This document shows, piece after piece, positions 17,568-53,500 of a stretch of 64,000 nucleotides of DNA (position 1 is its first letter; every line of letters begins with the position of its first letter). Made by a program: the position numbers and the translations under genes. The notes under the pieces are model-generated. The model ran no database searches. It worked only from the letters and a program-made list of their open reading frames with translations, and had not been told where the DNA came from. The DNA is from Catajapyx aquilonaris. Lineage: Eukaryota. The stretch is from NCBI GenBank assembly GCA_000934665.2, contig KZ538445.1, forward strand, positions 1-64,000. Reading direction: 5' to 3'.

Positions 17568-20500
17568 ATGAGCGGACGGACGGATATGAACAGGAAGAGT
17601 GAGTGTCGTTATGGAGGGGCGATTGGGTGTAGTACACCACAAGTTTGGGTATTGGGCTGGGGCACTTGCCATGGTCGACATGGGCAGGCACACAAGCACG
17701 CTCCAGGGTTGGGCTGGGTGAAGGCGGGGCCTCATGGGTGCAGCTCTCTTGTGGGAGTGTCGCGCCATGGAGCTACGCAGGCTGGAAGGAAGAAGGACCC
17801 GGCCTCAGTGGGAACTACTAATGGTGTAGCATTGGATCAGCAATCACATTTGGATGTGCTTGTACTGTACAAGAGGAGACTTAACCACCCACACATTGTC
17901 ATGTAATCACAGAAGCACAACAGGGATGCTTAGTGGCAAACTAATAAATTTAACTGCGTGTAATTGCAATCAGGTGTGCCCTTCACAGAAGAGGGGCAGG
18001 CAACAGTAACAATAAGTTCCAAAAGCACCTAGATATAGATTAATCAAGGCTTTCATAAGGACTTACGGTTTTGCTATGACCTGGTTGCAGTGGTAGTGTG
18101 GATATTGCTATTGTGATTGGATACAACATTTTCGCGATAACACCCAAACTTCCGTATCAGTCAGGGACTAGATTCCTGCTTCGTAACTCATCACACATAG
18201 TATATAATTATCCACTCATTTACTTTGGACAGTATCGTTGTGGGAGAACTATGGATATCGTAAATGTATGAAGCACTTGTTTCGGGATGCTGGTTCAAGT
18301 TTGATGAAAATAATGCCGTATGATGCCATTTCAATTACTACCCTACTCACCAAAAGATATCATGTAGACACCTAGTTTTTTATCACATATTTGTGTCCCA
18401 GGCTCCGCCATAGTAACCATGTGCTGTATTCTTTTGTTTTCCATTGTTACTTGTTTACACTATTGGAAGGCTGCATGGAAGAACTCTCAGCAGTATTTTC
18501 ATCATGTCAGGTCTCTATATTTTTTTGTAATGATTTAAGCCACGAGAATGCCATTATCTCACTGCAAAATTGATGTGATTCTGATTCCCCAACTGATGTC
18601 CTACACACTAGTCATGTCGTTGAAGTTCTGTTGTGATTTACACTACTCTCTATCTTTTCAGTCTTTGCGATTCAGGCCAAGAAGAAGCGATACAAGGCCA
18701 AGGCTAAAGCAAATGGAAGGCCGAAGATAGCAAACAAGGATGGCGATGGAGGAGGTGGGGGCGGAGGTGGAGGAGGAGGAGGAGGTGGCAGTGGTAGTGG
18801 TGGCAGCAGCGGAGGGCAGGCGAGGCCAGCCGGAAACCACAACAGCAGGTAAGAGGATGACACAATCCGCTGCTACCATTATGATGGCTTTCAATATTCA
18901 CCTTGTCAGCGCATCAAACCACAGTGTATGTAACATTGACCTGAACACAATGGGACAGACTCATTGTTATACTTGACTGTCTCTGACATCACTTGCAGTG
19001 TGAACCATTTAAAAAATACCTACGGGCCATAAAATACTGGGAATATGGGTAATATTGCTGTTCTGTCAATGCGCACTCGCTAGCCGTTATTGTAGGATTG
19101 TATGATTCAAGTGATATTAATACAGATGAAATTCAACCTAGAGCTAGTGCCGGTATTTACATTTCAATTGTAATGAAGCATCATTGCATAATGCCATTGG
19201 GTGCAGCTCTGTTGGATATTAAGCTGCATGAAATGCATCTCAGTTCCATACATTTTATCCCGGAGGCCACTTATACACTCTAGAATGGTGGGTGTCTTAT
19301 TGTCCATGACTAATACATGTTGATGTATGAGGAGGCATAATGACCACGTGAACTAGAGGTTTGGCTGTAATTGGTTCGTGATTTAATTTTACAGTAAGTC
19401 AAACCAATTTACTCTATTTTTATTTAGGACATTTGCATGCAATAATAAACCTGCCTTTAAAGGATATGCAAGTTCTGTGCGCTCCTGATGAACAGGTGCA
19501 AGAATAGAGGTGTATGCCATTTTCATTCTATTTAAAGTACTAAAAATGGTAAAATCCACATATACTGCTTCAGTAAAGGAAATTGTTTTTATTTTGAGGG
19601 TATCAGTACACAAACAATTTACTGTTTGTAAGAGCTGGCCTCCACAGATCTTCATCCTTATGGCAAAGGGTCACTCATGGTCATGGTCCAATGCATTGGT
19701 TGCAGACGACTTGTTTATTCACATTTGCCTAGACTGAGGCTGCCACGACTGCTACAAAAAGCTCATCGTCCCCGGAGACCCACTGCCTGCCACCCTTATA
19801 TCCATTCTATGTACTGGTGAAACTCCCAACTCGCCAACAAGTGTCACATGTTACATCACGGCCATATTTCTTATAACTAGCATACCAGCAAATGTGTTTT
19901 CTGAATTTATGACTATGAGGTGGGTTCACTTGAGTCATTCATGATTGTGGTATCAATGTTGGGCATCTTAAGCAATATATTGCATAATGGGTGCATTTAA
20001 ATATTCCTCAGGGCTACAGTATGTATTAATGCCTGCTGAATTAAAAATACACCCATGTGTTTACGCTGGTGACGTCATTGCTAAAAATATTTTGGAGACG
20101 AAACCTGTAGCATCAGAATTTAAAATTCGAAAGATGTGCTTCTGGCAATACAATATGTATGATTATGAATCTATAGAGGTTGGCTATGACAAACTGTTAG
20201 AAGTATCTTCCAAACTCTCAAGATTTATACTCTGTAGAATGGCATTATGAAACCTGGTATTTTATACGCAAAACATTATTTTTGGTCCATATTACAGTCA
20301 TGAAGGATGGTGGGAGTTGGGCAGTCCTGCTAAAAGCAATTTTGTGTAATTACATTTGATATGCAGGTAATAATACATATTTTGTGAAACACAATTTTTA
20401 TAATGAGCTTGTTTTAAAATAATTCAATGTCGTTTTACCATGGGGCATGTGTTGTGGTACTGGGATAAAATTAGTGAGTAGGTCTATAGAAGGGGAAATT

Positions 20501-50500: not shown

Positions 50501-53500
50501 CATGTATCGAAATATCGCACAGCCCTACTCGCACGGCTCGCTTCGATTTGCACTTCTGCCGCCACTGAAAATGTCGCAAGCAGTACGACGCGATTAATGT
50601 CCATATGGTGACATACTGTTCAGGTGCTACTTGTTGCACTTATCGGTTCAATTTTTATATACAAAAAGCGACAATTACCTGATATTGTGGATGGTACCGC
50701 CATTGATCTTCGGCGTTGCCCGTGGCCCATTTGAAATTTGCTTCTGAAGGCAAGTCACGGGCGGATACTAATTTCATTAGGCGGCTCGAGTTTTGTTTGA
50801 GTAATCCATTTGAGTGGGTCTGTTAAAGTGCCCGATTGATGTGTACCGGTATGTCGCAATGTAAGTTCCGTCAAATGATCGTGAGGGGCTAAAAATATGT
50901 CCCATGCGGCCTAGTAGTGACCTCGGGCGTCGTTTTTAAAGTCAGTCCGAGACAGTCTGTGAGACGGGGAGGTCTTGCGATGCGGCGGTTCCGATGTACA
51001 TCACGGATTGGGACGACGCCCCGGTGTTGGAGTGGAGCCAGCATTGCACCGGGTGTCTGCTGGATGTGGCGCTTCTGGCCGCGGTGGTGCTTATCCTATG
51101 CGAGTTCATAGGGTTTGAGGTGGTGCAGGTGGATGACGATGAGGAGGATGTACCGGAGTTGTTGGCGATTGATGCACCGGATGATGACACCAGTACTGAG
51201 AGCATCAGTAGTAGTAGTAGTAGTGATGAGACAGACAGCGAACGGATGAAAGAACTGGCTGCGACGTTGCCTCCACCAGTGTCACACCAATGTCGGAGAC
51301 GGGTTGCTAGGTGTGTCATGTGGTATTCGACCTGCCCCATTTTTTTTAAGTTCAAATGAGGGGATGTCTTGAAGCCCCATTGTGTGCAAACATTGACTCG
51401 TGCGGCATAGACCTGACTGCAAACTCCGGATCGATACTTTTATGTAGGGCAAGCTGTGGAGTGGGGCACAAACCCGACGGTACTTTACCAATAGCTAAAA
51501 TTCGGCGGAAAGGACCTAACACTGATTTGACCAACAATGTGGTGGGCACAGCTGATGTGAGGGGCTGGTTTTTTTACACACCCTGTTACTTTGAAGGTTC
51601 TATTTAATGCGCAAAGTTTACAAGTGCCTGATGGGTTGGTGCCAAAATGGCTATTTCTGGGTTTGGCAATGGTTGGGGGGATGACAACGGCTTACCTGAT
51701 GCCCCCGGTGTGTTTATTACAATGCAGATATTTTGCATGGAATGATTGATGCGGATATGGGTTAGTAAAATTGCGGTGTACATTTGTTTCAGATCTGATC
51801 CTCGCAGCTCGTCGACGTTGTCGGATGAAGAGGAGGAGGAGCTGTTAGGGTCGGATGAAGATGAGCAGGAGGATCCCAGAGATTATTGCAAAGGTGCGGA
51901 TGTTTTAATTTTTGGCAGCTTAGGTTGTTGTGTAACAGCGGCCTTGACTGTTGAATGATGCTAGGTTCACCTGGTAATTTTTGTGGCCCAACTATTACAC
52001 TTTTTGTTAACAATCAGCAGTGAAGGCAAGCAAGTATTCGAGTCAAATGAGCTGCCTCCCCGTCGCCCCACTCTTTTTTGCTGCGGGGTATTTTCTCATC
52101 TTGTGCCCCTGGGCAAAATTTTTAAATGCCAGTATTCACCTATCAAGTTCGCTTAATAGCAAAACTTTCCCTGTCAGCTGGGAAGAGTTAGTGTGCGGGA
52201 ATTTTTGTGAGCATCAAGGCCTGGTGTATTTATGGACACTGATAACTGTGGGCGGCATTAATGAGAGTGTAACGTAGAGCCAGAATCAGGGTAGAACTTC
52301 AGATACTGCGGGTGCGATGTTATTAATTGTGTTCATTTTTATATTTTAGGAGGATATCACCCAGTGAAGATAGGTGATTTATTTCATAATCGCTACCATG
52401 TAGTGCGCAAATTAGGATGGGGGCACTTTTCTACTGTCTGGCTGTGCTGGGATCTGGTGTAAGTACTACTCTAGTTATTGTGGTTGCTGCGAAATTGTTG
52501 CAATTGTAGTACTTGTCTTTTTTTCCCAATTTAGTGGGAAGAGGTTTGTTGCTCTGAAGGTGGTGAAGAGTGCGGCACACTACACGGAAACAGCCCTGGA
52601 TGAAATCAAGTTGCTCAAGTCGGTGAGTTAAATAAAAGTGGCATTTTCCTCACTTCATGACCAGTTTCAAATAGACCTGCTCAGTGTACTTGCCTCATCC
52701 ACTTTTTACCAACATTCTATTTATAAATGGCTTGAGTTTATACCAGCTCTAAGCAGTTTTCAGCCCTTGTTTTTATCATTCCTGATGAGGATGTACCAAT
52801 TAGAATTTAGTAAAACTGAAATAACTCGTTTTTCCGCAGGTACGTGAGAGTGATGTTAATGACCCGAAGCGCGACAAAACTGTCCAGTTGTTGGATGACT
52901 TCAAGATCACGGGTGTGAACGGCACACATGTGTGCATGGTGTTTGAAGTTCTCGGCCACAACCTGCTTAAGCTGATAATTCGTAGCAACTACCAGGGGAT
53001 CCCCAAGGCAAACGTCAGGACCATCATAAGGCAGGTGCTAGAGGGGCTGGACTACCTGCACACTAAATGCAACATCATCCACACTGACATCAAACCAGAG
53101 AACATCCTGGTCTGTGTGGATGAACCCTACATCCGCAAGCTTGCCGCCGAGGCCACCCAGTGGCGCAAGATGGGTGTCAAGCTCCCCAGCTCTCTGGGTA
53201 TGTATATGACTTCACGCCATATGCCATGCAGTTGCTTGGCATGCATTTGTGCACGGGGAAGGTTGTCTTGGCCAAAGAAGTAGAATTGCACTCATTGATG
53301 GGTTATCATGATACCAATAAGAAACACAGCCTCTGTTAATGAACACATTACCACTTCCATAAGCATGAAAAGAATTATTTGGTTGAATTCAGCTTTAGAT
53401 TAAGAATATTGTAAGTTGCACTAGCACCCATTGTTCACCATTTGTAACGAGAACTGATAAAGTCACCCCTATAATCCCCCGCGGCCCACATGAATGGCAG

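Follow-up and report, generated by a model that had tools for sequence, protein, structure and literature searches.

SR-protein kinases (SRPKs) are generally regarded as soluble enzymes that regulate splicing factors. In human SRPK2, with its Pro-rich N-terminus, and in the SRPK1a variant, an extended N-terminal region changes partners or localization. In the clustered protocadherin and UGT1A loci, several 5' exons, each with a donor, join one constant-region acceptor, and the variable exons are tandem paralogues, each encoding a whole homologous domain set. The DNA analyzed here, the window, is a stretch of 64,000 nucleotides from Catajapyx aquilonaris (assembly GCA_000934665.2, contig KZ538445.1, positions 1 to 64,000), the plus strand of which carries an SRPK gene of the arthropod type. 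All exons and candidate exons described below are on this strand. The gene contains a long intron (18849–51792), which probably holds, besides the canonical start, a few alternative 5' coding exons at 46630–47417, 29174–29208 and 50942/50994–51310. Independent support for these three frames is moderate, and 46630–47417 is most likely real. It is fairly probable, in our view, that one or more of the intronic frames truly serve as alternative 5' exons.

The closest described system is Srpk79D (CG11489) of Drosophila. In the part of its description considered here, alternative promoters provide non-overlapping N-termini that carry targeting information, with isoforms PC and PF directed to active zones and PB to perikaryal regions, and the gene has two transcription starts and isoforms RB, RC, RE and RF confirmed by reverse transcription PCR (RT-PCR) (PMC2759580). 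The same part of that paper backs an earlier note on the window, which had named Srpk79D as a precedent for SRPK N-terminal isoforms. The Catajapyx gene likewise places one SRPK kinase block behind alternative first exons with non-overlapping N-termini, which here are candidates recognized at the sequence level: at least two first coding exons with unrelated peptides are in frame with the common kinase exons. Unlike Srpk79D, for which that part of the paper gives two starts and RT-PCR-confirmed isoforms, the gene is proposed from its sequence to have up to three to four extra starts. The likeness is one of gene design, and no Drosophila protein is among the best 120 of 4295 proteins matched by a kinase exon of the window. 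As Srpk79D-like alternative promoters are known already, the gene would be a further instance, with about three to four modules.

The earlier note had read the intron as an array of variable first exons feeding one constant kinase region, with about seven to eight modules and a protocadherin- or UGT1-like design. The SRPK gene, the constant block from 51793 and three candidate frames of that reading stand. The array size and the paralogue-like arrangement do not: we count about three to four modules, as 32580–32746 fails, 36404–36465 and 23597–23733 are unsupported, and 37776–38026 is supported by composition only. As in the protocadherin and UGT1A loci, one acceptor would receive several 5' exons, each of which presumably has a promoter of its own and a donor only. 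Six frames are phase-compatible with this single acceptor, and 50942–51310 may own an acceptor. In contrast to those loci, the N-termini here are unrelated to each other and short or disordered, and about three are supported. The peptides differ in length and composition, and no direct-repeat family links them as tandem paralogues, so that the analogy fails on this defining point. With human SRPK2 and SRPK1a the gene has in common, compared by description only, an added Pro-rich or extended N-terminus; the consulted portion of the review PMC10952393 contains no occurrence of SRPK1a.

The SRPK gene and the divergence point of ortholog isoforms

The Pfam Pkinase family matches the open reading frames (ORFs) 52825–53280 (E 1.4e-14), 54122–54661 and 55748–55957. 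A protein search with ORF 52825–53280 returned the 4295 proteins mentioned above, and nearly all of the best 120 carry the name SRSF protein kinase 1/3-like. The top named arthropod proteins, from insects and crustaceans, are 83–88% identical to it over the exon. No match is identical among the best 120 of the 4295, so the own Catajapyx protein is absent from the collection searched. A profile of 96 SRPK orthologs matches seven ORFs with E values from 1e-14 to 2e-80. The kinase domain is thus of the SRPK type with high identity, and it is divided by a non-conserved spacer. Positions 69–132 of the Pkinase profile are found at about 52.9–53.1 kb and positions 136–189 only at about 54.5–54.66 kb, and the blocks 53500–53757 and 54164–54420 between the two halves are poorly conserved according to ortholog tblastn and the SRPK profile. 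An acidic pre-kinase linker (..ILGSDD.EQED..DY.KGGYH) in exon 51793–51893 and a basic AIQAKKKR start in exon 18662–18848 align with the orthologs as well.

The 3' part of the gene, 51793–55957, is a compact constant block encoding the split kinase domain and, ahead of it, the acidic linker, and the 5' part extends across more than 34 kb. The coding part of canonical exon 1 (17568–17598), located by a regular-expression scan of the plus-strand frames upstream of exon 2, begins with ATG 17568, encodes 10 residues and one further base, and ends in phase 1 at the donor GTGAGT at 17599. Its peptide fits the ortholog start M..K.D.NR+. Canonical exon 2 (18662–18848) is Gly/Ser-rich, ends with NHNS and has the phase-2 donor CAG/GTAAGA. 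As a control, its local alignment to ortholog N-termini gave z = 5.6, a score reached by 0 of 100 shuffles. The first constant exon (51793–51893) follows the acceptor tttcag/A, which would be common to all isoforms, and continues from a junction codon for R, K or V into SDPRSS... The constant kinase exons (52350–55957), delimited with Pfam Pkinase, tblastn of eight orthologs and the SRPK profile, are separated by short introns. Their approximate blocks are 52350–52456, 52530–52625, 52837–53196, 53497–53757, 54173–54661, 55160–55327/55384 and 55772–55957, the last with the stop codon.

The intron between exon 2 and the first constant exon begins with GTAAGA, ends with tttcag and is 32,944 nucleotides long as given. 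Joining exon 18662–18848 to exon 51793 shows that it is in phase 2. The intron contains Ns at 24596, 38249, 40802–40824, 43683 and 48509, and its true length may therefore differ from 32,944 nucleotides. The run of 23 Ns at 40802–40824 is possibly an assembly gap, which makes both this length and the absence of one insect-type exon (see below) provisional.

The N-termini of orthologous SRPKs are variable at the same place. The GGYH landmark is present in 114 of 121 homologs: 66 have the canonical start, 47 have a non-canonical N-terminus, including a few variant canonical starts or fused models, and one is truncated. The non-canonical N-termini that were inspected diverge directly before S-E-P-R, the equivalent of 51793. 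Pairs from the same species or genus include Schistocerca gregaria X3 (canonical) and S. nitens X1 (hydrophobic), the canonical Daphnia pulex protein and its X6 and Cys-rich short start, the Tachypleus X2 variants, and Austrofundulus SRPK1b X1, X2 and X3. Isoform numbers up to X7 are annotated. The N-termini form a very short class (Anabrus X2), a Pro-rich class (Neocloeon X2, Periplaneta X2) and a hydrophobic-anchor class (Schistocerca nitens X1, Gryllus, Nilaparvata, Laodelphax, Cloeon, Ischnura and Daphnia X6). Judged by these protein models, annotated SRPK genes widely combine a single constant block with a variable 5' end. The Catajapyx gene resembles the annotated insect, crustacean, horseshoe-crab and fish isoforms in the divergence point before the S-E/D-P-R acidic exon and in the classes of N-termini; the annotated isoforms are gene models, and their likeness to the exons of the window is short and moderately significant.

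Six insect isoforms of the hydrophobic class (P0005, P0008, P0013, P0057, P0066 and P0109), from Orthoptera, Hemiptera, Ephemeroptera and Odonata, have one N-terminus in common. It is composed of R-x-E-W-L-x-x-D/E-G...N-x-S/T-x-R-V, S-R-A-V-C-E, a helix of transmembrane strength and basic residues, and looks like that of a membrane-anchored SRPK with a glycosylated stub. Among the papers listed by a search of the full-text literature, none deals with a membrane-anchored SRPK isoform or an SRPK first-exon array. Some decapod isoforms (P0014, P0016, P0034 and P0035) are devoid of the acidic S-E-P-R/ILGSDD exon, and another N-terminal region joins the GGYH exon directly. The equivalent of acceptor 52350 can thus also receive alternative 5' exons in relatives. 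Motifs of the long malacostracan N-terminal isoforms were not found in the window.

Candidate 5' exons in the intron

The best candidate for an alternative 5' coding exon is 46630–47417. It encodes 262 codons from its ATG, belongs to a stop-to-stop frame of 320 codons from 46459, and ends at the donor CAG/GTAAGA. The peptide is rich in Pro, Ser and Arg, with 52 Pro among 262 residues, and includes an acidic run. No other stop-free frame of the intron is as long, the runner-up having 210 codons. When the surrounding GC-rich 1.8 kb was simulated with an order-2 Markov model, 16 of 3000 simulations reached 320 codons in any frame. Donors were scored with a generic position weight matrix (PWM) built from general consensus frequencies, by which five of the 2095 GT sites in the intron have a score of at least 6, one of them being the exon-2 donor. 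The exon ends exactly on one of these five strong donors, the 9-mer of which is identical to that of exon 2, and the TAA stop codon of the frame falls inside the donor sequence. The codon log-odds is 0.279 in frame, compared with −0.177 and 0.036 after shifting the frame, and the null distribution has a mean of −0.115 and a standard deviation of 0.137. On ORF and donor statistics, 46630–47417 is very probably a coding exon.

Comparison by BLASTP with the variable N-terminus of Neocloeon triangulifer isoform X2 gave a match with E 5e-4 in a single comparison, which includes the Neocloeon segment L-K-D-V-K-S-H-S-Y-P-P-P. The exact 6-mer P-P-R-R-R-L is common to the two sequences and colinear with this match, and both features occurred jointly in 2 of 1000 shuffles. 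Homology of the exon to this mayfly module is possible.

The frame 46459–47421 might instead be an independent gene nested in the intron, or an exon of another transcript, that encodes a Pro-rich disordered protein other than SRPK. An ATG of its own is present, with a purine at −3; the frame ends in TAA and is without robust homology to SRPK isoforms. However, the stop codon lies inside a consensus donor that equals the exon-2 donor at 9 of 9 positions and has the phase needed for 51793, two colinear motifs are common with an SRPK isoform N-terminus, and the product belongs to no Pfam family. We therefore regard a nested gene as very improbable and favor an alternative 5' exon of the SRPK gene.

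The frame 29174–29208 is probably a real start of 11–12 residues and a likely alternative first exon. It has A at −3 of the ATG, and encodes 11 residues followed by Val at the junction; its donor is AGT/GTAAGT. The isoform X2 of Anabrus simplex SRPK3 starts with M-P-A-Y-R-G-A-Y-L-S-L and then joins S-E-P-R. Compared with these first 11 residues, 29174–29208 ranks first among 1084 short ATG–GT frames of the intron from both strands and all phases, with a score of 26, the next being 17. Allowing for the several ortholog N-termini looked at, the significance of this match appears moderate. A database search with residues 1–40 of Anabrus X2 gave 13 candidates and 5 hits, none with an M-P start.

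The third candidate, 50942/50994–51310, is probably real and encodes a hydrophobic segment of apparent membrane-anchor strength. It ends at the donor TAG/GTGTGT, and could start at ATG 50994, as a first exon, or at 50942, as an internal exon of 369 nucleotides. The ORF 50940–51356 tops 3125 six-frame ORFs in a search with a profile of the six-insect N-terminus (Schistocerca nitens, Gryllus longicercus, Laodelphax, Nilaparvata, Cloeon and Ischnura), with 14.3 bits and E 0.007. The 19-residue Kyte–Doolittle maximum of the 50994 frame is 2.66. Of 469 intron ORFs, 3 attain this value, which lies within the range of 2.06–2.86 of the ortholog anchors. The profile alignment begins upstream of ATG 50994, where S-E-T-V-C-E corresponds to the ortholog S-R-A-V-C-E, and ...tttttaaag/T at 50941/50942 is a possible acceptor. 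With an acceptor at 50942, the exon would be symmetric (2-2) and enterable from any phase-2 upstream exon. The hydrophobic exon may thus be internal instead of first.

Weighing of the candidates and their possible use

All seven frames listed in the earlier note start with ATG, are directly followed by GT and have a length of 2 modulo 3. Recomputation of frames, phases and junctions confirmed that the intron is in phase 2 and that six of them read in frame into 51793. The N-termini are as unrelated as had been described: 29174–29208 is very short, 46630–47417 Pro-rich, and the 50994 and 37776 frames hydrophobic. The accompanying caution that the short candidates could be due to chance was well placed, as the number of phase-2 frames is at the chance level. 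Every ATG-open frame ending at GT was included in this donor test. At donors with a PWM score of at least 2, there are 26, 19 and 23 frames in phases 0, 1 and 2, respectively; at a score of at least 0, there are 87, 69 and 67. At a score of at least 6, the numbers are 0, 0 and 3 (frames ending at 23733, 45159 and 47417), a small sample with a chance probability of about (1/3)^3. The only ATG frames of at least 300 nucleotides with a donor score of at least 2 are 46630–47417 and 50994–51310, both in phase 2.

The intron could be an ordinary long one, in which only the junction 18848^51793 is used and the frames are either dead relics or ORFs that arose by chance in GC-rich regulatory islands. 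Several observations speak for this explanation and against alternative exons. The presence of several phase-2 frames is uninformative by itself, as they are no commoner than those of the other phases. GC-rich islands, with at least 0.53 GC in 400 nucleotides, are located at 28801–29200, 36201–36800, 37601–38000, 43801–44400, 45801–47600 and 50801–51400. Five of the seven listed frames sit in them, 29174–29208 in the first and 46630–47417 in the island with the highest GC content of the window; 23597–23733 and 32580–32746 are outside. In part this is to be expected, as stop codons are scarcer in GC-rich DNA, and ORFs in the islands are accordingly less surprising. When alignment scores were maximized over the database, those of 29174, 46630 and 50942 were not significant, being reached by 16, 20 and 33 of 100 shuffles, respectively. 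A tblastn search of the window with 111 ortholog N-termini yielded only noise, save a weak P0109 match at 50946–51095 (E 0.22).

Further observations concern individual exons. In a plain Smith–Waterman comparison, the score of 46630–47417 was reached by 60 of 2000 shuffles, and about 47 N-termini were inspected by eye, which makes the corrected significance of the Neocloeon match marginal. A phmmer search with the 46630 exon against 1.84 billion representatives gave 0 hits, a weak negative since isoforms collapse at 50% clustering, and a word-based search of longer proteins found none at E of at most 10. When the 3125 six-frame ORFs were searched by HMMER with the Neocloeon N-terminus or with a Neocloeon and Periplaneta profile, ORF 46459–47418 was not among the matches listed; the best E values, 0.06 and 0.45, belonged to other ORFs. 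The opposite strand of the 50940–51356 locus scores E 0.17 with the six-insect profile, so that the hydrophobic match is partly compositional. BLASTP of the hydrophobic exon against P0109 was not significant, and the residues after the hydrophobic segment are acidic here and basic in the orthologs. Neither a regular expression nor a profile located in the window the exon with EW(L)..DG and N-x-S/T that the six insects have ahead of the anchor; the best E value was 0.2, on the minus strand.

An ordinary intron would nevertheless have to accommodate a 320-codon frame that was matched in few of the simulations and ends exactly on one of the five strong donors. It would also have to accommodate three separate matches to variable ortholog N-termini, all on the plus strand and in phase 2, and the wide use of alternative N-termini at the same junction in orthologs. 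We therefore consider it unlikely and prefer a few alternative 5' coding exons, with the other listed frames most likely being due to chance.

A full array would comprise seven to eight promoter-selected first exons in the manner of protocadherin and UGT1, with all short frames included. The three frames at the strongest donors, all in phase 2, the position of five of the seven frames in GC islands, and the ortholog isoform numbers up to X7 agree with it. It is contradicted by the stop codon of 32580–32746 at 51793, by the non-coding codon scores of 23597 and 32580, by 36404 and 37776 having no ortholog match, and by the mutually unrelated variable peptides, and is in our view quite improbable. 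Among the remaining frames, the candidate 23597–23733 is weak: its phase-2 donor AAG/GTAAGC has a PWM score of 7.0, and its codon log-odds is −0.207. The 20-codon frame 36404–36465 lies in a GC island, has a weak donor (PWM 2.0) and no ortholog match, its score being reached by 23 of 100 shuffles. Neither of these two frames has comparative or codon support. The possible candidate 37776–38026, in the island 37601–38000, encodes hydrophobic stretches and then a basic tail, with a Kyte–Doolittle maximum of 1.83. Its codon log-odds of 0.215 is coding-like, and no ortholog match was found (40 of 100 shuffles).

Two matters were set aside. The frame 32580–32746, which the earlier note had added by way of an alternative acceptor, was rejected since it meets a stop codon on joining 51793 and has a non-coding codon log-odds of −0.378. 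The likeness of 23597–23733 to the P0022 kinase segment (E 4e-4) was taken as chance, the SRPK kinase profile finding nothing in the intron.

An extra phase-2 micro-frame, absent from the earlier list, is present at 45140–45159; it encodes M-R-R-A-V-A plus AG and ends at the strong donor CAG/GTGAGA at 45160. The strongest donor of the intron, AAG/GTAAGT (PWM 8.6) at 45285, lies 125 nucleotides downstream of 45160 and has no ATG-open frame. Either of the two donors could belong to a first exon, non-coding or of micro size, that precedes the 46630 exon.

We hypothesize that transcription starts separately at each alternative exon. The exons appear to possess a donor but no acceptor, except perhaps 50942, and the cap-proximal donor would be spliced to the common acceptor 51793. 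Since all donors are in phase 2, every product would stay in frame. Transcripts from the canonical promoter would skip the intronic exons. By analogy with fly Srpk79D, the N-terminus would set localization or partners and not catalysis. The practical gain is an improved gene model, in which a long Pro-rich exon, probably along with two further 5' exons, is placed in a seemingly empty intron.

It is also conceivable, although doubtful, that arthropod SRPKs share an old conserved toolkit of promoter-selected phase-2 N-terminal modules, with at least four present here together with a combinable symmetric 2-2 exon. The modules of this speculative toolkit would be a start of about 11 residues with M-P-x-Y-(K/R)-G, a Pro-rich module with P-(P/K)-R-R-L-P and D-V-K-x-H-S-x-P-P-P, and a membrane-anchored one. 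In the six insects, the last carries a conserved N-x-S/T sequon within a brief N-terminal stub, which precedes the transmembrane helix. None of the papers listed by the literature search describes such a toolkit. If it existed, a splicing-factor kinase would be routinely tethered to membranes or synapses. Should several unrelated modules including the membrane anchor be conserved at one junction across arthropods, localization by promoter choice would be a general SRPK feature, and annotation keeping the canonical start alone would miss most of SRPK biology. The less expected point lies mostly outside the window: a recurrent SRPK isoform of the membrane-anchor type, with a sequon-bearing stub, in six insects of four orders.

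Intron contents and neighboring genes

Pfam found no family above its cut-off in 132 intron ORFs of at least 65 amino acids from both strands, which had been selected at a minimum of 70 codons and of which two were cut at Ns. The sole sub-threshold match is Cu-oxidase_3, with 19.9 bits against a cut-off of 21. Rfam gave 0 matches in the intron, and a tRNA search 0 genes. On the plus strand, G exceeds C and T exceeds A over most of the intron, so that the GC skew is positive and the AT skew negative. Given the known strand asymmetry of transcribed regions, these skews fit plus-strand transcription through the intron.

The repeats found overlap no candidate exon. Short elements with terminal inverted repeats, similar to miniature inverted-repeat transposable elements, are located at 3789–3997, 14376–14569, 2789–2913, 44158–44355 and 50189–50603. 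The copies at 3.8 kb and 14.4 kb are 85–92% alike, and 43921–43971 is 76% complementary to 466–516. The GC island 43801–44400, the one without a candidate frame, overlaps inverted-repeat elements. Tandem repeats of 3–4.5 copies are present in the intron at 30952–31077, 34390–34533 and 47583–47654, with units of 28, 38 and 23 nucleotides, respectively; the last starts 165 nucleotides downstream of the 47417 donor.

Upstream of the SRPK gene are an RNase_T exonuclease ORF (5373–6038) and a zf-CCHC ORF (10544–10789). The segment 7201–8400 between them is a GC-rich island (up to 0.62) with the highest CpG observed/expected ratio of the window (0.87–1.14). It contains ORFs of up to 207 codons on both strands without a Pfam match, and may be a promoter island between the two genes. 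The downstream neighbors, on the plus strand, are a zinc-ribbon gene of the RPB9/TFIIS type (58163–58697), Sua5/YrdC (58749–59450), a gene with RUN and Rubicon-homology domains (59507–62278), and TRIP13 from 63059. Such tight packing of the flanking genes makes a 33-kb intron without a detectable protein domain exceptional at the SRPK locus. The stop-to-stop ORF gaps between the downstream genes (58163–63935) are only about 50–60 nucleotides in two cases, a spacing that is operon-like.

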